NCBI GenBank assembly: GCA_032249395.1
Contig: JAVVFY010000002.1
Coordinates: 4,239-68,238 of the forward strand
DNA length: 64,000 nt
Source of the DNA: Candidatus Aenigmatarchaeota archaeon
GTDB lineage: Archaea > Aenigmatarchaeota > Aenigmatarchaeia > CG10238-14 > SpSt-28
Reading direction: 5' to 3'
The notes under the pieces were generated by a model. The model ran no database searches. It was not told where the DNA came from and saw nothing but the letters and a program-made list of their open reading frames with translations. Below, in pieces: positions 6,832 through 42,255 of the stretch. A program made the position numbers and the translations under genes. How positions within the stretch are numbered: position 1 is the first letter of the stretch; each line of letters starts with the position of its first letter.

Positions 6832-7755
6832 ATGATAGTTTTAACATTTTTGGGCACAGTATCAGGAATACCTAGCAAAGAAAGAAATCATCCAGCAATA
6901 GTTTTAGAGTATTTTTATTACAAAAAAGATACTTTGCTTTTTGATTGTGGTGAAGGAACACAAAAACAACTTATGAATGCTGGAATAAGCTTTATGGACA
7001 TAAGTAAGATTTTTATAACTCATTGGCATGCAGACCACTTTGGAGGATTAATACCATTACTACAAACTATGAACCTAGAAAAAAGGAGAAGCGAACTAAC
7101 AATATTCGGACCTGAAGCAAGTAGATTTGTTCAAACCATATTAAATTTAGGATATTTTGGATTGAGATTTCCTGTGAAAGCGGTAGACGTACCTTATGAG
7201 GGAAAACAAATTGTTAAAGTATATGAACACAAGTTATACGAAATACTTTCCATTCCGGTATTGCATACAATACCATCTGTTGCTTTCGCCTTTAAGGAAA
7301 AGGATGTGTGGAGGATCGATGAGAGAAGGCTAAAGGAATTGGGCTTGAAAAAAGGGAAGTGGCTAAAAGAATTGAAAGAAAAGGGAGAAGTTGTTTATAA
7401 CGGGAAAAAAATTAGGATAGAAGAAGTAGCAAAGCTTCAAAAGGGTTTAAAAGTTGTATATAGTGGAGATACAAAACCTTGCGATAACATTATAGAATTA
7501 TCAAAAGATGCTGATGTATTAATTCATGATGCAACCTTTTTGGAAGAAGATGAAGATACGCAAAAATATCATTCAAGTGTTAAAGATGCAGCAATAGTAG
7601 CAAAAAAGGCAAATGTCAAAAAACTGATTTTAACTCATATTAGTAGAAGATACAGAAATGATGATATAGAAAGAATTATAAATGAAGCTAAACAAGTCTT
7701 CGACAATGTTGAAGTTGCATATGATTTAATGAAAGTTGTTTTAAAAAGAGAATAA
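6832..7755 (+). CDS. rnz: ribonuclease Z (tRNA 3' endonuclease, metallo-beta-lactamase fold)
   Basis: HWHADHFGG matches the HxHxDH motif. Length 307 aa with the ...ILTHISRRY C-terminal region. Confidence 0.8.
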   Translation: MIVLTFLGTVSGIPSKERNHPAIVLEYFYYKKDTLLFDCGEGTQKQLMNAGISFMDISKIFITHWHADHFGGLIPLLQTMNLEKRRSELTIFGPEASRFVQTILNLGYFGLRFPVKAVDVPYEGKQIVKVYEHKLYEILSIPVLHTIPSVAFAFKEKDVWRIDERRLKELGLKKGKWLKELKEKGEVVYNGKKIRIEEVAKLQKGLKVVYSGDTKPCDNIIELSKDADVLIHDATFLEEDEDTQKYHSSVKDAAIVAKKANVKKLILTHISRRYRNDDIERIINEAKQVFDNVEVAYDLMKVVLKRE

Positions 7756-7886
7756 AAGAGCAAAATTATGAAGCATAAAAGCTAGTCTCTAGAGATAATT
7801 ATATTTATCTCTAGCCAAAAATGTCATTTTTTTGAACTTTATTTATAGTTTTTGTATTCTACAGAATATATTTCAGTGTGAATGAA

Positions 7887-8093
7887 TCATTCATAAATCA
7901 CATTAGCCTCCAGAACAATTGCTTTTCCTCCCCTCGCCCTTATAAAAGAAGCTATTTCTATTAATTTTTGAGTGCTTTCATGGGTCCAAACAGACTTCTG
8001 GATCATTCTTGCACCAATTTTGTTCAATTTTCTGTTTATCTTCAGTTTCAAAGCTGAAGAACCACTTCCAAGTTGAAAAATAATCAAATACAT
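7887..8093 (-). CDS. Cas2-like small protein, probably catalytically inactive, solo
   Basis: 68 aa. KINRKLNKIGARMIQKSVWTHE aligns to the Cas2 core RRRKVAKLLEGYGRRVQYSVFE. The conserved Asp of beta-1 (YDV) is replaced (IIFQL). No cas1 or array nearby. Confidence 0.3.
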   Translation of the reverse strand: MYLIIFQLGSGSSALKLKINRKLNKIGARMIQKSVWTHESTQKLIEIASFIRARGGKAIVLEANVIYE

Positions 8094-8617
8094 TATGATA
8101 CTTTAGTATCAAAAATATAAATACATTTATATACCGAAAAATATATATTAGTGTGAAGTAACGAAAAAGAATGAATCAAAAAATATATAATATAAAATAA
8201 ATTTTAAAAAAACAATATTATAAAATATAGTATGGTGTGAATATAAACTAAAGATAAAATAAGCTAAAGATAAAATTCGAAAAAGTGAAGATTTTGATAA
8301 CGTGAGATGAGTTAAAAATAAAATCTGGCGTTGAAAGGTATCAAAAAAATTTAATAAGATAAATTAAAAGTGATGAAAACCGTAGGTAAAATTCGAATCA
8401 AAAATATTGAAAATAAATAAAAAGAAAAGAAACAGAGATGTGAGAATTATTAAACATAAAAAATATAAAATCACAAAGTGATGAAATTAGGAAAAGCAAC
8501 TAACATCAGAAATAAAAATGAAAATTTAGAAAGCGTGATATAAACAATAGATAAATTCAAACAATATGAAGGTGAGAGTTCTGAACAAAAATTTAAATAC
8601 AAAAACTAATTACTTAG
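8094..8617. other. 524-bp extremely A-rich, C-depleted intergenic tract with recurrent GTGA(T/A)GA-like words
   Basis: Read directly from sequence. Strong purine-strand asymmetry with almost no C on the + strand. AAAGTGA(A/T)GA-like words recur at roughly 40-70 bp intervals. Confidence 0.5.
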
Positions 8618-9469
8618 ATGGGCGTGATATCTTTTATAAAGAAAATATTATTTGGAGAAAAACAACCTGAACGATTCAGCGATTCACAGCGATTTGAATC
8701 GATGAATCAATTGATTCGTATCGATTTGAATCGAGCTGAATCGGAAAGAATCGAGCTGAATCGAGCTGAATCGATGAATCAATCGATTGAATCGCCCAAA
8801 TCAACAATTATCTCTAGCGAAAAGGAGGAAAAACCAACAATTTCTATCGATAAAGAATCTCTTAAGGTTGGCATGGCAGCTGGCTATATCTCACGCTCCC
8901 TAATAAGTATAGAAGATGGAATAGAAAGGATAGAAATTTCAATGCCATCCAAAGAATGGATAACCATGAACATTCTTCCAAAAATAGAGCAAGTACAACA
9001 AGCAATATACAACATAAGGGAAATCCTAATGGATCATGAAAGAAACGAGGAAAAAAGATTTGAAGTATTATTAGAAGCAATAAACAAACTAAAAACTATG
9101 GCACCCTCACTACCAGAACCGATAAAAACTGAAATTTTATCTACAGTTGCGTCATTGAAATCTGCTACCCTAACTCCCAAAATGCAACAAATTCTCGACA
9201 TTCTCAAAGAAAGAAGAGAAATTAGTTACCAAGAACTTGCTGAAAAACTTGGAATAACAACAGATGGTCTAAGAGGTATACTCTCCAGAATGGTAAAAGT
9301 ATGTGACGAAATCGAGCGATTTGAAAAAGATGGTAAGGGATGGATAAGAATTAAATCGATTCAAAGCGATTTGAATCGATCAGAATCGCTAGATCAAAGC
9401 AGTAGACTAGAAATAAAAGAACAAAAAGAGGAAAATAAGGAAAATAAAGACCTTTCAGATATGCCATAA
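8618..9469 (+). CDS. winged-helix DNA-binding protein whose coding sequence carries GAATCGA motif clusters
   Basis: C-terminal wHTH ISYQELAEKLGITTDGLRGILSRM. The nucleotide motif clusters encode repeated RAES/NRAE peptide units. Confidence 0.5.
   Translation: MGVISFIKKILFGEKQPERFSDSQRFESMNQLIRIDLNRAESERIELNRAESMNQSIESPKSTIISSEKEEKPTISIDKESLKVGMAAGYISRSLISIEDGIERIEISMPSKEWITMNILPKIEQVQQAIYNIREILMDHERNEEKRFEVLLEAINKLKTMAPSLPEPIKTEILSTVASLKSATLTPKMQQILDILKERREISYQELAEKLGITTDGLRGILSRMVKVCDEIERFEKDGKGWIRIKSIQSDLNRSESLDQSSRLEIKEQKEENKENKDLSDMP
8672..8794. repeat. cluster of GAATCG(A)/CGATTC motifs including six phased 10-bp units (8721-8780)
   Basis: At least 12 copies of the hexamer/octamer in both orientations. 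8721-8780 reads as six units of pattern TCGAnnnGAA, for example TCGAGCTGAA. Confidence 0.75.
9308..9392. repeat. second cluster of the same GAATCGA/TCGATTC motif at the 3' end of the gene
   Basis: Contains AATCGAGCGATTTGA and AAATCGATTCAAAGCGATTTGAATCGATCAGAATCGC. Confidence 0.7.
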
Positions 9470-9667
9470 ATTCACACTCTCAATAATTTCGATTCAATAA
9501 GAGATAAAATGAAAAAGAAAAAATATTGAAAAACAGAAGAAAATAAGAAAAAATATAAAGGTTTAAAGAGTATGATTTTACCTTTTAGTCTCACTCACGA
9601 TCTATAGAATTGTAAAAAACGCGTTTCACAAACAATAACTTTTAAACACAAAAATACAAATTTGTGA

Positions 9668-10507
9668 ATGGAGGGAATCGAAAACATAGCAAAGATTCTT
9701 TGGAATTTGGGAATAACAATAACGAAAATAGAGAAAAATCGAATTTATGCAAAAGACTCTAACGGAGAGTTATTGATAAGAATTAGCAATGTCGGACCAA
9801 AAATCAAAACCTACGATAAGAGGATTATAGTTATTTCGCCGTACGCTGCAAAAAGAATTGAGGAGGAAAGAATGAAGAAAATAATAGAAGGATACTCACA
9901 ACCAGTATTCGTAAACAAGAAAAATCTCGAAGAGCTAGCCCCATCAACTCTATTCAAGATAGTAAATTATCTCAAGGAAAATCCTAATACTTACATAAAG
10001 AAGATCTCAGAAGACTTGAAAATTCACCCAGAGATAGTTAGAAGAAATTTGATAAAGATAAAAGATTACCTAGAAATAAAAGAATTTGAAAGTGGAATGA
10101 GTTTGCCAAAATTACCAAAGCTAATTTCTTTAAAAGAAGAAATACCTCCTGAAAAACTAACTGAACTCTCTAAAAATAAAATATCAATTTTACCAACTAG
10201 AAATAAAAGAAAAAGAAGAATTAGATACGAAAAAACAAGTAAATCTGAGGCCTTGTTTAAAGTACTGAAGTTTATAGAGGAAAACCCGGGAACTTACCTA
10301 AGAGAAATCTCACGAGAATTGAAAATATCTCCTTCTTTAGTTTACTCTTGTTTAAAAGAGGTAAACGAATTTCTAGAGCTCTCATCTCCCATAGGAAAAG
10401 AAGATATCGAACTACCAAATTTGCCGATTTCCATAAAGCTAAAACAAGGTTATACAGCTGAGGGAATTATAAGATACTTAAGATTCAGAAGAATGCTAAA
10501 GTTTTGA
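9668..10507 (+). CDS. protein with two winged-helix HTH domains, hypothetical regulator
   Basis: Two internal repeats: ENPNTYIKKISEDLKIHPEIVRRNL and ENPGTYLREISRELKISPSLVYSCL. Confidence 0.45.
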   Translation: MEGIENIAKILWNLGITITKIEKNRIYAKDSNGELLIRISNVGPKIKTYDKRIIVISPYAAKRIEEERMKKIIEGYSQPVFVNKKNLEELAPSTLFKIVNYLKENPNTYIKKISEDLKIHPEIVRRNLIKIKDYLEIKEFESGMSLPKLPKLISLKEEIPPEKLTELSKNKISILPTRNKRKRRIRYEKTSKSEALFKVLKFIEENPGTYLREISRELKISPSLVYSCLKEVNEFLELSSPIGKEDIELPNLPISIKLKQGYTAEGIIRYLRFRRMLKF

Positions 10508-11350
10508 ATTTTTTGTTTTTCCAGTAAGTCTACAAAAAGCACAAATTTCAGTATTAGTTGGTTCTCCACATATTTTACAAAACTTGAGTTGATCTTCATT
10601 TTCGAAATAGGCACTCATTTTTATTACAGAGTTCAAAAGTCTTTCCTTAAAGCCTGGAACTTCTGACTCAAGTTTATCTATAATATCATACCACTTGCTT
10701 GTTTTTTCATACAACTTTATCTTTTCCTTAAAGTATATGCAAAGACTTTCTTGAACGTACGGTACTCCAAGATTTTTTACAAATTCCTCATTTTCTTTTC
10801 TGCCAACAAAGAAAAGCGGTCTTATTTTTGTTAACAATTTTGGATTGTTGCTTTCCACTTTGGGCCTAAACTTACCTATCCAAGAATAGTTCATTCCAAG
10901 AATATTTTTGATGAAAAACACAAGAATATCATCTCCATGATGCCCAGTTGCTATCTTAGTTGCTCCAAGTTCTCTGGGAATTTTATTCATCAGATATCTT
11001 TTTATAACCCCACAATCGCTACAAACTGGTCTCCTATTCTTTTTTGCTATTTCGCGAAGATTGATACCTTCTTTCTTCAAATCGAATACAATAAGTTTTA
11101 CTCCAGCTAATTCGCATTGTTTTTCAACAATCTCCTGAATTTTTTCTGAACCAATAGTTCCAAGGTTTATGTGAAATCCTATTATTTCAAAATCCGAATT
11201 TCTCTCCTCCTTAAATTTTTTTAACACAAACAAAACCGCCGCACTATCCTTACCTCCGCTCAAGGCTACAAAAATCTTATCGCCTCTCTCAACAAGCCTG
11301 TACTTTTCAATCGTTCTAAAAATTTTATTTAAGTATTCGCTCTGATTCAT
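10496..11350 (-). CDS. PP-loop ATPase of TtcA/NcsA family (tRNA thiolation)
   Basis: SGGKDS PP-loop motif, CSDCG and a C-terminal CKICGE...CAFC zinc ribbon. Confidence 0.65.
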   Translation of the reverse strand: MNQSEYLNKIFRTIEKYRLVERGDKIFVALSGGKDSAAVLFVLKKFKEERNSDFEIIGFHINLGTIGSEKIQEIVEKQCELAGVKLIVFDLKKEGINLREIAKKNRRPVCSDCGVIKRYLMNKIPRELGATKIATGHHGDDILVFFIKNILGMNYSWIGKFRPKVESNNPKLLTKIRPLFFVGRKENEEFVKNLGVPYVQESLCIYFKEKIKLYEKTSKWYDIIDKLESEVPGFKERLLNSVIKMSAYFENEDQLKFCKICGEPTNTEICAFCRLTGKTKNSKL

Positions 11351-12402: not shown

Positions 12403-14424
12403 GTGGTAATAATGAAAGATAGAGATAAATTAAATGAATGTAATTTGATTACAAAAGCAAGAGACATAAGAAGATTAAGCGAAGAGGAATTTTTGTCTTT
12501 AACTAATCAAATAAAAGAACTAACAAAGAATTTTACTGAATTTAAGCAACTAATCAAAGAGAATAGTCAGATTTTGTTGATAATTAGATGTCTCACCGGA
12601 ATGAAAAGAAAAGATTTTGCTAGTGCTATAGGAATTAACGAAGAAATTTTAAGACAAATAGAAGTTGGTAGAAGGAAAATTAAAAATGAGAGTAAAATCG
12701 ATAAGATAAGCAAGAATTTGGAAGAAATTTTCTCTAAAATTTCTGAAATAAGCGTTGAAAATGCATTAGAGCTTTTCAAAGAAGTAGCAATCCCAACCGA
12801 TAATGAAAAAGTAGAGAAGATTAGAAGCGAGTTGGAAGAAATAAGCCTGCCCGAAGACCTTAGAAAAATGGATGAAGAACAATTTTTGAAAGTTTTTGAA
12901 TGGTTGAAAGAAAAAACAAATAACTTTAAGATTTTCCCAGAAGAGGTCTTTTTAGCAAAAAATCAGCTTATCCTAATTTTGAGGTGCGCTTTGGGAATGA
13001 CTAGACCTAGTTTTGCAAGAAAAGTTGGAATATTTCAAGAAACGTTAAGACATGTAGAAGCTGGGAGAAAAGGTCTACAGTTTTCACAAAAAACAGTCGA
13101 AGATTGGTGTAGAAAAATAAATGAATTTTTAAAAACCCAAGAAATCTCTCCGAATATCGAAAAATCGTTATCTATTTGGAAAGAAATAAGCATTCACCAA
13201 ACAGAAGAAAACATAACAGAAATAGAAAAAATAAAAAGCGAGATGAATAAGCTTGGATTGATTGACTGGGATAAAAAAGATTCAAAAATTTTACCTGAAT
13301 TTTTCAATTTCTTTAGAGAAAAAACAAATAACTTTACTATATTCCCAATTTCTCTTTTTCTAGCGGATAGTAGTCTATCGATATTTTTCATTAGATGTTG
13401 CAACGGAATGACGCAAAAGGAATTGGCAGAAAAAATTGGATGTACAAAAGATCTTATTAGACATCTAGAGAACAAACACGGAAGAATTGTGCATGCAGGA
13501 CCAGCACTAAGATGGATAAATAAATTACAAGCATTGCTGCCAAAAAACATAAATTTCGAAAAATTCGAACAAAATTGGAAGAAAATAATTTTTTCGAAGA
13601 TTGAAAATATAGAGAAAAAAGAATCTTTCAAAAGTTTATCTACAGAAGCAATTATTAGCAAAATAGAAGAATTGAAATCAAGAACAAACAATTTTAATGA
13701 GATAAGGGAAGTTTTAGAGAATGATGCTAGGAATATTTTCTTATTTAGAGTAATATGCAGAAAAAGAACAAAAGAACTGGCAAGAATATTAAAAATTGAA
13801 CCAAGCGAATTAAGGAGCTGGGAAGATGGGAAAAGAAGAATAAGTCCAGAAACGTTAGAAAAAATCGCTCCAATTCTGAAAGAAATGCTTAGAGATATTA
13901 AGATAGAGAAGGAGACAATATTAAGGAATTTAAAAGATATAAAAAAAGGTAAGATTTGTTTTAATAAAGATATACAAGTAAAAAATGGTATCAAGTTAGT
14001 TGAAAAACTTCCACCGACCGAATTAGAAAATAAAGTAATAAAAGTTCTGTCATCCAATAATATTCCATTCGAACTTCACGCTACAATAGATTTCAATGGT
14101 AAGTTCTTTAACGTAGATTTTGCTATTCCAAATTCACAGAAACCAAAAATAATAATTGAAGTTTTTGAGTCAAAAAGTAGTAATAGAAATTTAAAGACTA
14201 AATTAATAGTTACTGACCATAGATTTGTGGTTTTAAAAAGCAATAAACCGGATTTGAAAACTGCTATGATAGGTGAAACTAAATCTTTACTAACGGAAGA
14301 GTGGAGAGAACATATGCTTAAAGAAATTATAGCAACTGATTTTATAGTTTTAGGAGATAATGAGGATGTAGAATCCTCAATAAAAGATACTTTACTTAGT
14401 TTCATAAAAACCAACTTACAATGA
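12403..14424 (+). CDS. tetra-HTH (XRE-like) repeat protein with C-terminal PD-(D/E)xK nuclease-like domain
   Basis: Four modules, each beginning xxxKTNNF and followed by an HTH (LRCALGMTRPSFARKVGIFQETLRHVEAGRKG; CCNGMTQKELAEKIGCTKDLIRHLE and similar). The C-terminal VDFAIPNSQKPKIIIEVFESK resembles the Hjc/restriction-enzyme D...ExK core. Confidence 0.45.
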   Translation: MVIMKDRDKLNECNLITKARDIRRLSEEEFLSLTNQIKELTKNFTEFKQLIKENSQILLIIRCLTGMKRKDFASAIGINEEILRQIEVGRRKIKNESKIDKISKNLEEIFSKISEISVENALELFKEVAIPTDNEKVEKIRSELEEISLPEDLRKMDEEQFLKVFEWLKEKTNNFKIFPEEVFLAKNQLILILRCALGMTRPSFARKVGIFQETLRHVEAGRKGLQFSQKTVEDWCRKINEFLKTQEISPNIEKSLSIWKEISIHQTEENITEIEKIKSEMNKLGLIDWDKKDSKILPEFFNFFREKTNNFTIFPISLFLADSSLSIFFIRCCNGMTQKELAEKIGCTKDLIRHLENKHGRIVHAGPALRWINKLQALLPKNINFEKFEQNWKKIIFSKIENIEKKESFKSLSTEAIISKIEELKSRTNNFNEIREVLENDARNIFLFRVICRKRTKELARILKIEPSELRSWEDGKRRISPETLEKIAPILKEMLRDIKIEKETILRNLKDIKKGKICFNKDIQVKNGIKLVEKLPPTELENKVIKVLSSNNIPFELHATIDFNGKFFNVDFAIPNSQKPKIIIEVFESKSSNRNLKTKLIVTDHRFVVLKSNKPDLKTAMIGETKSLLTEEWREHMLKEIIATDFIVLGDNEDVESSIKDTLLSFIKTNLQ

Positions 14425-36227: not shown

Positions 36228-37394
36228 TTATCCACTAATCATTGATTCAAAAAACTTTTGGAAATCTTTATCCTTTTCCAAAACTTTAAAGTAAGGTAAA
36301 AATTCGGTTCTTATTTTTTTGGTGGAACAATTTAGAAGTTTTGAAAGCTTCTTCAATTTTTCTTTTTCCTGTTCTCTTTCTTCTTTGCTAGAAGCCAAAT
36401 ATCTTAGTTTTGCTGGAAATTGATATTTTGTAAATTTTCTGTACATCTCATCCTTTGCTAAAGAAACTCCAGCTGTCATTAAGTCATTCATATACCTCAT
36501 GAGCTTCCAATAGTTTCTGCTCATTATTCTAGCTCTAAACAAATCGGCTTTTGCTAAAGCTTCATAAGCTCTTGCAATCTCTTCTGGCTTTTCATATTCA
36601 TTTGGAATATTCTCTTCTATCCACCACATTATAATTTCTGGTTCTAAATCAACATTGGCAATACTTAATTTAGCTCCAATTAAAGAAGTTGTTTTAAACA
36701 AAATTTTCAGTGCTTCAAACATATCTCTTTCTCTTTCTCTATAGCCGAGAACCTCTAAATCTTTCAAAGTTATTTTCTTTTTTCCTCTTGCGATAGTTTC
36801 TAAATCATTTATAGCTGCTCTCAAATCTCCCTCGCTCCTCTTCGCCAATTGGTTTAAAACTTCTTTGTCGTACTCTATGCCTTCTTTTTCACAAATTTCC
36901 TTTAGCTTTTTCTCAATATCCCAAACTGGTATATCTCCAAATGGAATTAACTCACAATACTCTCTCAATACTCTTAATTTCGGATCATACGGATCGTTTG
37001 CAGTTAAAACAACAGGATGTTTACTTTTTTTAATTATTTCAATAATTGCTTGAATTCCTCCAGCATCTTCTTTTCCGGAGATTCCATCAACCTCATCTAT
37101 CAAAAATATTCTTCCTTTTTTGAAAAAACTAGCAACTGCAGAAGCATGACCAAAAACCTCTTCTATTTGTTTCTTACTTCTAACATCACTGGCATTCATT
37201 TGAATTAACTCTAAATTTTTATCATTAGCAAAAGCTTCAACCAGACAAGTTTTTCCTGTACCTGGCTTACCATATAGCAATGCTGCATTGGAACCGGGTT
37301 TCCAATTTCTGTACCATTCTAAAAATTTTGCCAAAGCTTCTTTTTGGTCTACAAAATCCTTCAAACTTTTTGGTCTATATTTTATCGTAAACAT
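36228..37394 (-). CDS. rfcL: replication factor C large subunit
   Basis: KYRPKSLKDFVDQ...LLYGKPGTGKTCLVEAFA...FLIDEVDGI: AAA+ clamp-loader large subunit. Confidence 0.8.
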   Translation of the reverse strand: MFTIKYRPKSLKDFVDQKEALAKFLEWYRNWKPGSNAALLYGKPGTGKTCLVEAFANDKNLELIQMNASDVRSKKQIEEVFGHASAVASFFKKGRIFLIDEVDGISGKEDAGGIQAIIEIIKKSKHPVVLTANDPYDPKLRVLREYCELIPFGDIPVWDIEKKLKEICEKEGIEYDKEVLNQLAKRSEGDLRAAINDLETIARGKKKITLKDLEVLGYRERERDMFEALKILFKTTSLIGAKLSIANVDLEPEIIMWWIEENIPNEYEKPEEIARAYEALAKADLFRARIMSRNYWKLMRYMNDLMTAGVSLAKDEMYRKFTKYQFPAKLRYLASSKEEREQEKEKLKKLSKLLNCSTKKIRTEFLPYFKVLEKDKDFQKFFESMISG

Positions 37395-37396
37395 AC

Positions 37397-39622
37397 TTAC
37401 TTCTTTCCTTTAGATTGAGCATGCAACCAAAAGCTTGCTAGTAGACTTTCTAATTGTATTAACTCATTTGCACCCTCTGAAATTCTAAAATCAACTTCTC
37501 CACATTTTTCTATTAACTCAACTTTTGCTCTATCATCTATATTCAAAGAAGGAATTTGTCTGTGAATTTCTGCAATTATATCACTTCCAGCTAAACCCTT
37601 CTTGATAATCATTTCTCCTAGCATCTTTCTAGCTTCTATGAATTTTCCATTCAAAGCTAAATCAAGCATTTGCCTAACTTCTTGCGGCTTTGCTAAAGAA
37701 GCTGCCTCATAAATAGTATCTTCAGTTATTTTTTCTCCTAGAGCAGAAGCTATTTGCAATATATTAGCTGTTCTCCTTAAATCTCCTTCAACAATTCTAA
37801 CAACAGCCCTTATTCCATCTTCTGTTATTTTTAATTTTTCCCCTTCGACAATTCTTCTAACATACTCTTCAACGTGCTCATCGTCTAAAGCTTTAAATCT
37901 AAAAACGGCACATCTCGATTGAATTGGTTCAATAATTTTGCTAGAATAATTACAAATCAATATAAATCTTGAAATGCTTGCATACATTTCCATCATTCTT
38001 CTTAAAGCTTGTTGAGCGTCACTTGTCATTGCATCGGCTTCATCTAAAATTATTAATTTAAACGGAACGTCTCCTATAGCAACAGTCCTAGCAAATTCTT
38101 TCACCTGACCTCTTATAACATCTATACCTCTTTCATCTGAGTTGTGTAAAAGAACTGGGACATTACCAGCAAAAAACATCTCATTACCTGGAACACTAAC
38201 ATCATAAACGAACCCCTCATAGTCTATAATTTCCAATTTCTTGACTTTCAGTACATGTATATCTGAAGAAACGAGCTTTTCCAAAAATTCTACAGTGAAC
38301 TTCTCTTTTTCATCTAATTTTTCCCTATCAACCATCTCTAAAATCTCTTTTAGAATGTTTTTCGAAACCCTTCTCTTCTTTTCATAAAGTTGATGTCTCA
38401 ATTTATATCTCCAATTTCCTTTTATTTTCCTTTCAATATCCGTTAAAAGCTTTACTACAATTTCGGCTGGCAACAATTCGCTTTTCTTCCATTTCATAGC
38501 TCCTTTCCATATCAGTCTTACCTCTCTTTTGAAAATAGATGACTCAATGCCAGAAGTCCTAGCTAACCAAACAACATCAGTTAACAATTCTCTTGAGACA
38601 GAAGATATTCTAACAACTTTATTCCATTCTCCGCAGCCATCTCCATCTGCCAAACCTTTTAGGTAGTTTATTCTTTCTTTGATTGAAGAATGAAAAACAA
38701 ACGATGGTACCCTCTTGTTATCTGCAATAAAAGGTTTACCATCATAAAAGTTTTCTTTCATAAATTTTGCTAAATTAGTGCTTAAAAGTCTAAGGTGAAT
38801 TGCCGATAGTTTTTTTCTATTAAAACCAGAACCAACTAATCTTTCATAAACACTTATTCCTAAATCATTTGCAAAATTTTTGATTTCATTTATAAGATTC
38901 GTTTCGTGAGCACCAAAGGTATATACTACTTGACCTGACGTGTTTCCTTTAAATCCTACACACCCTTCTGCAGTAAACAATCCAAAAGAATAGAAAAGGT
39001 TGTCTGCTTTAAAAGTAGTTATGTTTGTTGGCAGATTTGCTTCAAGATTAGAGACAAAACTTATAATGTAATCTCCTTCTTTTAACTCACTTGCAGATTT
39101 TGGCTTTAAACCATTTTTGTCTAACACCATCACGGAATGGTTTCCAGTAAGTTTTAGTTCGCCTCCACCCTCAAATCTAATTTTTAATATCTTGTTAACT
39201 TTGTGTCTTATTATTTTTGAAACTTTTTCCCATTTTACCTTTAGATTATTATCCACCGTGAGAACCTCTAAATTGTTAACATCTTTGTAAAATTCGTTTT
39301 CCTTAAAATAGATACTATCAAGCTCCTCAAAATTTGTCCTTTTTATTTTTCCGTTAATTTTTACTAAGATAGGTGTATCTTTTGAAACTGATGCATTGAG
39401 CTGTAATACATTTTGCCTCCATTGTTCGCCATATAATTCTCTAGCTAAAACTAATGCAAGAGTTGTTTTTCCTGTACCTGGTGGCCCTGCGAAAAGCATG
39501 TGCGGTATGTTTTTGCTTTTAGCAAAAGCCTTTACCCTTTCAACAACGTTCTCCTGATTAATTATTTCGTCAAATTTTTTTGGTCTATACTTTTCTGCCC
39601 AAACCTCAAACTCTTTTGCCAT
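37397..39622 (-). CDS. rfcS: replication factor C small subunit containing a 417-aa LAGLIDADG intein
   Basis: Exteins EKYRPKKFDEII...AGPPGTGKTT...LQLNA | SDERGIDVIRGQ...DEADAM...SRC join to give the canonical LNASDERGID. The intein (residues 78-494) starts SVSKDTPILV, ends VLLHN, and has two LAGLIDADG-like blocks (FGLFTAEGCVG, LKGLADGDGCG). Confidence 0.85.
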   Translation of the reverse strand: MAKEFEVWAEKYRPKKFDEIINQENVVERVKAFAKSKNIPHMLFAGPPGTGKTTLALVLARELYGEQWRQNVLQLNASVSKDTPILVKINGKIKRTNFEELDSIYFKENEFYKDVNNLEVLTVDNNLKVKWEKVSKIIRHKVNKILKIRFEGGGELKLTGNHSVMVLDKNGLKPKSASELKEGDYIISFVSNLEANLPTNITTFKADNLFYSFGLFTAEGCVGFKGNTSGQVVYTFGAHETNLINEIKNFANDLGISVYERLVGSGFNRKKLSAIHLRLLSTNLAKFMKENFYDGKPFIADNKRVPSFVFHSSIKERINYLKGLADGDGCGEWNKVVRISSVSRELLTDVVWLARTSGIESSIFKREVRLIWKGAMKWKKSELLPAEIVVKLLTDIERKIKGNWRYKLRHQLYEKKRRVSKNILKEILEMVDREKLDEKEKFTVEFLEKLVSSDIHVLKVKKLEIIDYEGFVYDVSVPGNEMFFAGNVPVLLHNSDERGIDVIRGQVKEFARTVAIGDVPFKLIILDEADAMTSDAQQALRRMMEMYASISRFILICNYSSKIIEPIQSRCAVFRFKALDDEHVEEYVRRIVEGEKLKITEDGIRAVVRIVEGDLRRTANILQIASALGEKITEDTIYEAASLAKPQEVRQMLDLALNGKFIEARKMLGEMIIKKGLAGSDIIAEIHRQIPSLNIDDRAKVELIEKCGEVDFRISEGANELIQLESLLASFWLHAQSKGKK
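38141..39391 (-). mobile_element. intein with LAGLIDADG homing-endonuclease domain inside rfcS
   Basis: Boundaries inferred from extein continuity. C-terminal HN plus a +1 Ser. Confidence 0.7.
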
Positions 39623-39654
39623 AATTCTTTATTTCTTTTTCTTCATTAAAAACT

Positions 39655-42255
39655 TTAAACCAATGCTGCAGTTCCTCCGGAATGCCATGATACTCTCGGT
39701 CTTATAACAACTGTGAAAACTTTCTCTAAGTTATCATCTAAAATCAGAGCTGCACCAGGCCATCTTGGTAGAGAATTCAAGTAAGCTTCTAATTCTTCCT
39801 GCATATAGGTTTGCATAACGGCATGAAGTGCTTGAATATCATCTCTGGATGTAAGTCTAAAGGAAATTACAATATCTGTTTGACTTAAAATCTCCTGATG
39901 TATTTTATTAGGCATTTGTGTTATAACTACTAAACCTACTCCAGGTTCTCTACCTTGTTTTGCAATTATTTTTATTGGTTCACTACTAGCAACTTCTTTA
40001 TCGCTTGGTATAAAGTTATGAGCCTCTTCTAAAATCAACCAAACTATTGGAAATGTGAATTTCGGTTTTTCTCCGGTTATTTTAAACTTTTCTTCTTCTT
40101 TTCTGGCTAAAACTCTTAATCTATAAATTTCTCTTGCTATTAATGCTACTAACAAATTTCTCAATTCTTCTGATCTCATTCTGGAAACATCTATAACAGT
40201 TATCTTTCCTGGCTCGGCTATTTCTTCTATTTTTGTTCCTTCCTTCACAATAAGTTTCCACTCGTTAGCAACAGATAACAAACTTACCAAAGCGTCTCTA
40301 ACTTCTTTTTTCGTTTCTTCATCTTTTCTAATTTCTTCAATCAAGTCAGTCAAATCAAATTTCTCTTTTTCTCTTTGAAGTTTTGTAAAATTTTTTTCAA
40401 GAGCAACTCCTTCTTCACTTAATCTATCCAACCTGAAAGCCAATAATATTTCTTCTGGAGTTAATTCACTTAAACTCAAAGCAATAGTTCCATCAACTGG
40501 AACTCCAGCATTTTTATAGCTCTCTAGCTGACCAATAGGAACTAAAACTTTTAGATTTGTTAAACCTTTCGGCTCCAATTGCCATTCCTTCAATAAATTC
40601 TTTTGTTGTTCATTAGGATATTTCATACTCCAGTAAATTCCAACTGGATCGACAACAATAAAAGACATTTTGTTTCTGTATTCATCTGGCAAAAAAGAAA
40701 ATTCTTCAAGAATTGCTCCTGCAGAGTATGAATTGTGTAAAATTACACCATTACCAACAAAATTGTGCTCATCGTTTACGGTAATGTCAAATACTTTTGT
40801 TCTTTCATTAATTGTAGTCTTCTCAACAACTTTTACCCAAACGATGTCTGGAGAGGAAATTTTAAGTAGATATTCATCATTAAAATATTCTCCGATTTTT
40901 CTGATTGTCGATTTCAAAGGATTATACTTGTATTTTGTAGAAACACCTTTCCAATTCTTATATCCCAGAGCTTTACCTATCTCTTTTTTCGAGTATTTTT
41001 CTTTTATGTATTTCCATATTGATTTTGGCAAATAATCGAAATTTGAATGATATTTTCTATTGTTGGCTAAAATCTCACTTATTAGTTTCTCTTTTCCTGG
41101 AAAACCTATATGAGTTATGAACTTTTTAATAGATTCTTTATCTGTAACAAAAAGAGTATAGTAAGTTTCTCCTTTAACCTTTTTCTCTCTTATGTATGAA
41201 AATATACCAAATCTGAGAAGCAAATAGAAAACTCCTTCTACCATTTTTCTGGATTTAGAAGCATACTCCAAAACATAAACTTGTTTACCTCTACTTTTTT
41301 TCTTGTATAGCGAGCCATCTCCTATAAACAAACATCGAAGGAAAAGGGCAATTTTTTTGTTAGAAAGAGAAAAGATAAACGAAGGTATAAACTTTTCTCC
41401 AGCTTTTTTGTTTTTTAATCCAAGCGATTCTAACCAGTTTAGCAGACTATTTCTCTCAAATATTAATCTAGATCCTTTAGAAAATTTACCATTTGGTAAT
41501 CGTCTAACATTATTCTCTTTAAGTTTTAGTTTAGTACCAACAACACGATATGTCGATGGATTACTCTTCATTCTCACTACTTTGAGACTTTTGTCAAACT
41601 TTTTCACACATTCTATAAAATCGTTAACAACTTCTTTGCTAGAATTTGTAAACCACACAAATGTTTTCCCTATGGTTCCTTCTGATAATATGTATCCTAA
41701 CAATTTTATCTTTTCATCTTCGATGTTATCAGTTCCTTCTACCGGAAAATAAGATGCAACAGCTATAACATCACCTTCTTTAATATCTTCAGCTCTTTTC
41801 CAACCAAAAGGAGTTAAGATCGGGTGTTCTTTTGTGACTTTTATCTCTATTCCATTCCAAAGTTTCATTTTTATTATGCTATCTACTTCTCTCTCAAAAA
41901 AATCGATAGCTTTAGAGGGCTTTATTTTAAAGTTGTCTTGATTTAGTGAAAGCACTCTAGAAATTTCTCTTTTCTTAACTAATTCCTCGATAGGCAAAAG
42001 TCTTCCATCTCCAAGTTGCACTAGAGTATCTCCAGTTACACACTTTCCGCTACCCCTTTTTCCACAAATCAAAATAACGTGAATTTTCAAGAAATCTAGA
42101 TAAACTTTTGTTGTTAAATGAGCATCTTCTCCTTTTCCAACAATGTGTTTACCAATATAACCAGCACCTATATTTCCAAACTTCTCCAAATCTTTTCTTT
42201 CTCTACCAACAACAGTTGGATAAGCTTTAACAATATCCTCATAAAATTCTTCCAT
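39655..42255 (-). CDS. HerA-like (DUF87) P-loop ATPase containing a 437-aa LAGLIDADG intein in the Walker A motif
   Basis: Extein GKRGSGK | SYSAGAILEE restores a GxxGSGKS P-loop. Walker B is LILEEAHNFIP, as in HerA/FtsK-like ATPases. Intein runs CVTGDTLV...VILHN with LAGLIDADG-like blocks (LGYILSEGTIG, FLRCLFIGDGS). Confidence 0.6.
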   Translation of the reverse strand: MEEFYEDIVKAYPTVVGRERKDLEKFGNIGAGYIGKHIVGKGEDAHLTTKVYLDFLKIHVILICGKRGSGKCVTGDTLVQLGDGRLLPIEELVKKREISRVLSLNQDNFKIKPSKAIDFFEREVDSIIKMKLWNGIEIKVTKEHPILTPFGWKRAEDIKEGDVIAVASYFPVEGTDNIEDEKIKLLGYILSEGTIGKTFVWFTNSSKEVVNDFIECVKKFDKSLKVVRMKSNPSTYRVVGTKLKLKENNVRRLPNGKFSKGSRLIFERNSLLNWLESLGLKNKKAGEKFIPSFIFSLSNKKIALFLRCLFIGDGSLYKKKSRGKQVYVLEYASKSRKMVEGVFYLLLRFGIFSYIREKKVKGETYYTLFVTDKESIKKFITHIGFPGKEKLISEILANNRKYHSNFDYLPKSIWKYIKEKYSKKEIGKALGYKNWKGVSTKYKYNPLKSTIRKIGEYFNDEYLLKISSPDIVWVKVVEKTTINERTKVFDITVNDEHNFVGNGVILHNSYSAGAILEEFSFLPDEYRNKMSFIVVDPVGIYWSMKYPNEQQKNLLKEWQLEPKGLTNLKVLVPIGQLESYKNAGVPVDGTIALSLSELTPEEILLAFRLDRLSEEGVALEKNFTKLQREKEKFDLTDLIEEIRKDEETKKEVRDALVSLLSVANEWKLIVKEGTKIEEIAEPGKITVIDVSRMRSEELRNLLVALIAREIYRLRVLARKEEEKFKITGEKPKFTFPIVWLILEEAHNFIPSDKEVASSEPIKIIAKQGREPGVGLVVITQMPNKIHQEILSQTDIVISFRLTSRDDIQALHAVMQTYMQEELEAYLNSLPRWPGAALILDDNLEKVFTVVIRPRVSWHSGGTAALV
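40732..42042 (-). mobile_element. intein with LAGLIDADG homing-endonuclease domain inside the HerA-like ATPase gene
   Basis: Canonical Cys1 ... HN / Ser+1 boundaries, read from the translation. Confidence 0.7.

Follow-up and report, generated by a model that had tools for sequence, protein, structure and literature searches.

In this work we analyzed a window of 64,000 nucleotides (nt) from a Candidatus Aenigmatarchaeota archaeon (contig JAVVFY010000002.1, positions 4,239 to 68,238 of the forward strand; coordinates below count from the first letter of the window). One open reading frame (ORF) in it, here called gene T (8618-9469, + strand), encodes an Aenigmarchaeota-specific protein of 283 amino acids (aa) and carries dense arrays of the short motif GAATCG and its complement CGATTC at both ends of its coding sequence. 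Between homologs the DNA-level feature is kept and the encoded peptide changes, the opposite of what a translated peptide repeat would show. We give a somewhat better than even chance to the explanation that the arrays are helically phased sites on double-stranded DNA, most likely for the product of the gene itself, which are kept by selection on the DNA. Gene T and its sites look like a co-evolving protein-DNA pair.

The window is AT-rich (~31% GC) and contains 19 exact copies of GAATCG/CGATTC, 14 of which fall within 8672-9680. Nine copies lie in the 5' cluster (8672-8794) and three in the 3' cluster (9357-9388), so that the density in the ORF is ~150 times that in the rest of the window; for at least 12 exact copies in the ORF the Poisson probability is ~1e-16. 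The 5-bp core AATCG/CGATT was found 13 times in 8672-8794 and 7 times in 9310-9388, compared to ~1 per kb elsewhere, and when one mismatch is tolerated the motif counts are 18 (5' cluster) and 7 (3' cluster). Copies occur on both strands and in all three reading frames. The original prediction had described about 15 and about 6 copies at the two ends of the ORF; the clusters are real, and these numbers hold under a loose definition of the motif. It had also proposed that a random frequency of the motif would refute the idea, and just 5 exact copies are present in the other 63 kb.

The 5' array (8672-8794) encodes residues 19-59 of a disordered linker. Within it, a phased block on the + strand (8728-8773) has GAATCG starting at 8728, 8738, 8748, 8758, and 8768, in steps of exactly 10 bp with variable spacers. 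Six consecutive 10-bp units had been described from position 8721; five of the six fit TCGRnnnGAA (one with TCGG) and give the five GAATCG copies at 10 bp intervals, and the sixth, TCGATGAATC, is shifted out of phase by 2 bp. Tandem Repeats Finder reported periods of 10 and 20 for the array. The 3' array (9354-9390) consists of five cores in nested inverted repeats, laid out as ATCGATTC AA AGCGATT TG AATCGAT CA GAATCGCT, and encodes the disordered tail SIQSDLNRSES. Relative to the gene start the arrays are at +55 to +177 and +737 to +773, with up to ~20 sites. A minor pair, AATCGAGCGATT (9310-9321), is located in the wing-coding part and is confined to the closest relatives; it exists because the invariant Arg234 uses a CGA codon, and in the alignment the codon of other clade members is AGA.

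The codons in the repeats depart from the usage of this genome. In the pooled repeat regions (8660-8797 and 9305-9392), CGN codons account for 7 of the 9 arginines, compared to 20/583 (3.4%) in the long ORFs of the window (p = 6e-9), and TCG for 7 of the 11 serines, compared to 58/772 (7.5%; p = 5e-6). Thirteen genes of the close clade were aligned by codon: at third codon positions the mean pairwise identity was 0.86 in motif cores, compared to 0.67 in the spacers and 0.65 in the rest of the gene (p = 1e-5 for the latter). Among T proteins that are 93-97% identical, residues 100-245 are near-invariant and the substitutions pile up on the spacer codon (LNR-[A/F/S/T/V/N]-ES). Two close variants lack exactly 10 aa, the length of three 10-bp units. 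The arrays are thus selected as DNA, and the statement that this does not look like ordinary coding sequence is borne out by the reading frames, the codons, and the conservation in homologs: it is a DNA-level array in a winged-helix gene.

We collected 60 T loci (cited by L numbers). Arrays are present in ~50 homologs of T, all of them aenigmarchaeotal, with copies on either strand and in each of the three frames. As the original prediction had asked of related genomes, the motif is conserved inside the gene, at the same two places. The first cluster begins 35-65 nt past the ATG in nearly every homolog, just after the part encoding the N-terminal helix, and in most homologs the second follows directly after the winged-helix-coding part; motif copies occupy the first 240 nt and last 160 nt, with nearly none in mid-gene and few in the flanks. 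In nine lineages with shorter proteins (L002, L004, L007, L032, L034, L037, L038, L039, and L047) the 3' array lies across or after the stop codon and is non-coding; therefore, the arrays do not exist for the sake of the peptide. The linker peptides are unrelated across lineages (ESMNQ, RYESI, INQSQ, EALQSD, and KSDVEAIV).

The motif itself is lineage-specific: GAATCG in the window clade, GAGTCG/GACTCG in L023, CGATAC in L001, L003, and L027, AATCAATC in L004, L008, L034, L037-39, L047, and L049-52, AAAGCGAT in L005, L006, and L028, AAGCGCTT in L029-35, L044, L056, and L060, AATCGATT in L007, and AAATCGA in L009 and L010. In L023 many copies have changed in concert and in both orientations (GAATCG to GACTCG and CGATTC to CGAGTC). 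The motif agrees between the two ends of a gene much better than between lineages (diagonal score of 55 compared to 23 expected; permutation p = 5e-5). All observed homologs are in frame, including the AATCAATC lineages, which carry short tracts of (AATC)3-5 broken by CAA that are not found in the other lineages. This was looked at with a phase-variable simple-sequence locus in mind, in which a long unbroken tract near the 5' end changes in length and shifts the frame.

The spacing between copies was examined by an unbiased 5-mer analysis of 39 non-redundant genes, which yielded 208 same-strand spacings. The histogram peaks at 10 bp (56 spacings), 11 bp (12), and 21 bp (10), and only 29 of the 208 spacings are divisible by 3. 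Same-strand spacings of 10-11, 20-22, or 32 bp were found in the GAATCG, GAGTCG, CGATAC, AAAGCGAT, AAGCGCTT, and AAATCGA lineages, and the copies are helically phased in these different sequences. A second array was seen neither in the other 63 kb of the window nor in ~305 kb of homolog flanks.

The T protein consists of an N-terminal amphipathic helix, a disordered linker, a helical domain, an ArsR/MarR-like winged helix, and a disordered tail. The N-terminal helix MGVISFIKKILFGEK (8618-8662, + strand) is conserved in the family alignment and was modeled as helix at residues 3-12 by AlphaFold2 (AF2). Its mean hydrophobic moment in the family is 0.57, compared to 0.34 for shuffled segments, and it is a candidate membrane- or partner-binding element. 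The linker (residues 13-78) has low model confidence, the predicted local distance difference test (pLDDT) score being <50 across residues 13-73. The helical domain (residues 79-184; 8852-9169, + strand) is conserved and its coding DNA has no motif copies; AF2 placed helices at 79-108, 120-164, and 169-184 with pLDDT 80-92, no Pfam or PDB sequence match was found, and the domain is a probable oligomerization module. The winged-helix DNA-binding domain (residues 187-245 in the AF2 model; 9176-9352, + strand) has a fold of the ArsR/MarR class with a recognition helix beginning at TTDGLRGILSRMVK, and it gave the sole Pfam match in T (HTH_24, residues 190-226), in agreement with the winged helix that had been predicted toward the C-terminal end. 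There was no Pfam or NCBIfam match to ParB, and the motif is also unlike parS. With 114 clusters at 50% identity in a set of 1.8 billion proteins, the family is small. Its members with a source-given taxon are all Aenigmarchaeota, and T is single-copy within the window; current annotation pipelines label it merely a winged-helix regulator or hypothetical protein. The homologs L028, L030, and L031 (343-349 aa) have an extra C-terminal domain of ~110 aa beyond the tail (e.g., ...GVEIKLVSDTSSLEKGMGQLLLAKISYNL... in P0054), and their second motif cluster still follows directly after the winged helix and thus lies in mid-gene.

Two winged-helix proteins could read the arrays, since gene T adjoins a partner gene. 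In the window the partner (9668-10507, + strand) encodes an N-terminal domain and two winged helices, as in the rest of its clade, and is the adjacent gene with a double winged helix-turn-helix (wHTH) that the original prediction had pointed out. In most lineages the partner is ~90 aa with a single winged helix and is often convergent with T. It is the only conserved neighbor (39/55 loci, in either orientation), and its matches are to generic wHTH folds only, with no specific similarity to Rep or Orc winged helices or to the two-winged-helix type of RepA, RepE, and pi. Most loci of the AAGCGCTT, AATCAATC, AATCGATT, and AAAGCGAT lineages share a single partner recognition helix, LHHKTVSRL, whereas the start of the T recognition helix varies with motif class: TD with GAATCG, KD...LRS with the GAGTCG variant, [VI]DS with CGATAC, [EQ][DS]A with AATCAATC (EDG in L047), and [VIT]S with the AGCG classes (with one exception, ES in L030). 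In the same genome pairs, the partner proteins are 71-88% identical and the T proteins 43-65%. The class-specific T helix, the largely constant partner helix, and this gap in identity therefore favor T, and its own product is most likely the reader of the arrays. Motif copies at 9490 and 9675 were considered as operators of the partner gene and rejected, as they are not conserved in relatives. As a separate observation, the L030 partner is 86-88% identical to the L039 and L049 partners from AATCAATC-class genomes, and in a comparison that also included L052 the L030 T gene, which has AAGCGCTT arrays, matched L029 (62%) better than L049 (48%). T may pass between genomes together with the arrays inside it, and L030 may be an example.

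These results can be brought together in a model in which the arrays would be binding sites on one face of the double helix, selected as DNA, and placed in the disordered linker and tail because only there does the protein tolerate any sequence. After oligomerizing through the central helical domain, T would use its winged helix for cooperative binding to both arrays, and could bridge the ~560-650 bp that they bracket into a loop. The immediate effect might be autoregulation, by a roadblock or a loop downstream of a near-leaderless promoter. Since protein and sites would evolve as a unit, each lineage would have its own motif. We infer the identity of the binder, the cooperativity, the looping, and the cellular role from the features described above. 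As no second array was seen in the 63 kb and the ~305 kb of flanks, what this locus is for may be the complex of protein and DNA: a single landmark on the chromosome, which the N-terminal amphipathic helix possibly links to the membrane or to a partner. In a bolder form, which we propose tentatively and with a small chance of being right, T and its arrays would be a self-contained chromosomal landmark of Aenigmarchaeota, either a membrane-tied centromere-like anchor or a non-Orc origin or organizing center, whose specificity is re-written in each lineage, the reader being inherited together with its sites. Partition, replication, and regulation, all suggested in the original prediction, are candidate roles on the sequence evidence.

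Several observations weigh against binding by T at phased sites. The TATA-like box of gene T is overlapped by no motif copy, which is atypical for archaeal repressors. The AATCAATC lineages have 4-bp units in blocks of 19-23 bp instead of a clean 10-11 bp spacing, L005 and L006 carry a mid-gene cluster in place of the 3' cluster, and L041, L046, and L048 hold merely 2-3 motif copies. The covariation of recognition helix and motif is confounded by phylogeny, with few independent contrasts; the host is uncultured, and binding of the arrays by T is deduced from sequence; and the array search in this genome covered 64 kb, so that other arrays may exist elsewhere. Finally, the clusters fold strongly as RNA, the 5' one with -48 kcal/mol (z = -3.9) and the 3' one as a nested hairpin. 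This would suit an element acting in the mRNA, where hairpins or 5'/3' pairing would govern translation or stability or an RNA-binding protein would find its sites. The two clusters also share arms of 24-29 nt that are 76-88% complementary, the arrays past the stop codon could still be in the 3' untranslated region, and the concerted A-to-C and T-to-G changes in L023 would be compensatory in RNA as well. Against this, the reverse strand folds equally well, because any inverted motif does so trivially, and in L005 and L006 nearly all copies are direct, so that hairpins cannot form. The conserved same-strand period of 10-11 bp is the helical repeat of B-DNA and has no obvious meaning in RNA, many palindrome centers are 1-2 nt, too tight for RNA loops and typical of dimer sites, and no Rfam family was found in 7500-11000 at E<=1. 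We give an RNA-level element rather little weight.

It is unlikely, in our estimate, that the sites are read by another protein, such as the winged-helix partner or a replication initiator, at a locus whose AT-rich upstream region makes it an origin or centromere. The partner adjoins T in the 39 of 55 loci noted above, a long AT-rich gap precedes T in all loci checked, iterons beside an AT-rich tract are the classic layout of an origin, and origins within initiator genes are known (PMC7466680, PMC3155836). However, the partner recognition helix is shared by most loci of four motif classes while that of T varies with class, no Orc1/Cdc6, ParA/SegA, or RepA-like gene is nearby, the copies near the partner start are not conserved, and in the window T is not at a divergence point of the gene strands. 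The AT-rich region is upstream of the gene in all loci, with none inside the gene beside the array, and there is no skew or strand-switch signal. A neutral origin, in which microsatellite-like repeats arise by slippage or gene conversion in a tolerant linker and have no function, would account for the whole-unit indels between close relatives, the concerted change in L023, the likeness of the AATCAATC lineages to tetranucleotide repeats, and the disorder of the encoded peptide. Yet slippage homogenizes whole units, whereas here the cores are invariant and the spacers differ within a gene and between strains; it makes no inverted copies; the 10-11 bp unit recurs in independent lineages with different motifs, though only multiples of 3 keep the frame; and slippage leaves unexplained why the motif forms another cluster ~600 bp away, whether in coding or in non-coding DNA. 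We regard the neutral explanation as improbable. That the DNA merely encodes a functional peptide repeat such as [DE]LNR[AS]ES is very improbable: a DLNRS[EQ]S-like tail does recur in several lineages, but this similarity arises because similar DNA is read in a fixed frame. The use of three frames and two strands, the unrelated linker peptides, the rare codons, and the non-coding 3' arrays contradict it, and we rejected a translated tandem peptide repeat, which had been named as a refuting outcome, as homologs conserve the DNA and the peptide varies. A role as restriction or methylation sites was rejected too: TCGA, GCGC, or ATCGAT is found within several motifs, but the AATCAATC class contains no such site.

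We also examined the flanks of gene T. A TATA-like box, TTTAAATA (8592-8599, + strand), lies ~20-25 nt upstream of the ATG in a block that is conserved in the upstream alignment of relatives. The box suggests a T promoter element and, from its distance, a leaderless or near-leaderless mRNA. In the window, as in almost every lineage, the 200 nt that precede the ATG contain no motif hexamers. The nearest long ORF upstream is 862 nt away across a gap with ~24% GC, and the A-rich tract that had been noticed upstream is present, the 560 nt before the ATG being 54% A on the + strand; an AT-rich gap of 300-1800 bp precedes T in all loci examined. The A-rich non-coding region (8094-8617) carries conserved GTG(A/T)(G/T)A boxes. 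These boxes, all on the + strand and conserved in close relatives, are at 7876, 8151, 8235, 8302, 8440, 8535, and 8572 (~8 in 750 bp compared to ~0.9 expected), and the box is reversed downstream of T, at 9472, 9589, and ~9613 (GTTTCACAAA). The TATA-like box of T has one of them 10-15 nt ahead of it, the TATA-like box of the partner gene is preceded by another, and GTG(A/T)(G/T)A may be a second regulatory motif flanking the T module. At 8093-8135 a conserved palindrome, GATACTTTAGTATC, stands beside a TTTATATA box directly before a small conserved ORF (7887-8093, - strand); the two are probably the promoter and operator of this ORF.

The original prediction had raised the possibility of an integrated element, which our results do not favor. 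The neighbors of T are housekeeping genes (PP-loop ATPase, Met aminopeptidase, acylphosphatase, and Rpo5-like; CCA-adding enzyme and RNase Z were named from sequence, with no family search), no relatives of T were found among viral contigs (IMG/VR) or plasmids (PLSDB), and the gene is conserved in Aenigmarchaeota. We therefore rejected an origin from a mobile element, plasmid, or virus and concluded that the T locus is chromosomal. The likeness to ParB/parS or RepA-type systems, also raised there, is not supported either, with no ParB, ParA, SegA, or RepA-type protein: there are no Orc1/Cdc6, ParA/SegA, or RepA-like genes near T, no Walker ATPase gene in the neighborhood of any T locus examined, and no actin-like or tubulin-like NTPase gene beside T, the sole conserved neighbor being the small winged-helix protein. 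GC skew and strand bias gave no sign of a replication origin at T, as the window shows coding-strand effects only and no switch at T; with the iteron-like array beside the AT-rich upstream gap, an origin role is still a serious competitor of the model above. Elsewhere in the window, a block on the - strand (36228-42255) holds the genes of two Walker-A proteins side by side (388 and 741 aa) and an ORF of 866 aa, and ends at ~42.3 kb at a switch in gene orientation and a cumulative GC skew minimum. Judged solely by their first residues and their lengths, without a family search, the two Walker-A proteins resemble the small and large subunits of replication factor C. A replication origin within the window is more plausibly sought at ~42.3 kb than at the T locus. 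A further unusual architecture was found at 12403-14424 (+ strand), where a 673-aa protein carries a C-terminal domain preceded by at least four XRE/Cro-type HTH modules in tandem; Pfam matched HTH_3 in 3 stretches and HTH_31 in 2.

We found nothing relevant in the literature on this family or arrangement in Aenigmarchaeota or DPANN archaea. If the explanation given here is true, gene T would be a natural case of overlapping codes, a coding sequence that doubles as a phased array of binding sites, most likely for its own product, and the arrangement is conserved across a DPANN lineage in which chromosome organization and gene control are almost unstudied. With at least six natural pairs of motif and recognition helix, the family would offer a series for decoding winged-helix specificity, and it could yield orthogonal protein/operator pairs for engineering. 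Should the complex be a landmark, tether, or origin, it would represent a new solution to chromosome organization in minimal archaea.

The arrangement can be compared with several known systems. In plasmid P1, the iteron arrays incC and incA flank repA, so that the same iteron is present at both gene ends and serves autoregulation, looping, or handcuffing; the P1 iterons are 19 bp and outside the coding sequence, and RepA is a plasmid initiator with two winged helices. T shares with P1 RepA the array at each gene end, and differs by its one winged helix plus a novel helical domain and by its chromosomal location. In ParR/parC and TubR/tubC, a small DNA-binding protein (a winged helix in TubR) coats phased direct repeats of 10-12 bp by its own gene, forming a structural nucleoprotein complex that autoregulates as well; a motor NTPase gene (ParM, TubZ) is adjacent and the repeats are in promoter regions. 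The T arrays are phased in a like manner, but they are in coding sequence and there is no motor gene; the defining partners of partition systems are absent at T loci. Bacillus subtilis Noc tethers DNA to the membrane by an N-terminal amphipathic helix combined with sequence-specific DNA binding, and is a ParB-fold CTPase with many sites across the chromosome. T has the N-terminal amphipathic helix and DNA-binding domain in common with Noc, with an unrelated fold and a single site-bearing locus seen. Autoregulators of the ArsR/MarR class normally bind one or two palindromes overlapping their own promoter, whereas T has no promoter site and has an extra N-terminal helix, linker, and helical domain. 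P1 repA, ParR/parC, TubR/tubC, and Noc thus have one aspect each in common with T, but none of them shares with it the protein family, the bracket of two arrays, the short cores at one-turn spacing, and the archaeal chromosomal setting.

The closest analogue would be the O gene of phage lambda with its internal iterons. The stretch of O that the lambda iterons encode is an interdomain linker, and the pairing of iteron and O differs in specificity between lambdoid phages. In lambda, a single central array of 19-bp iterons is followed within the gene by an AT-rich tract, while the T locus has two arrays that bracket the structured domains, with 5-8 bp cores at 10-11 bp spacing on an archaeal chromosome and with no evidence of a role in replication. 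Lambda O has no such winged helix and shows no sequence relation to T. The lambdoid O gene holds its own ori iterons, and extra iterons add residues that are uninvolved in DNA binding (PMC7466680); similarly, repC contains its own oriV (PMC3155836). As in an intragenic iteron system, the T arrays lie within the gene of a putative DNA-binding protein and in dispensable stretches, the segments with pLDDT <50 whose peptides are unconstrained. Gene T thus resembles lambda O in having an array of cognate sites inside the coding sequence of the putative binder, and the 10-aa indels in T can be compared with the residues added by extra iterons in O.

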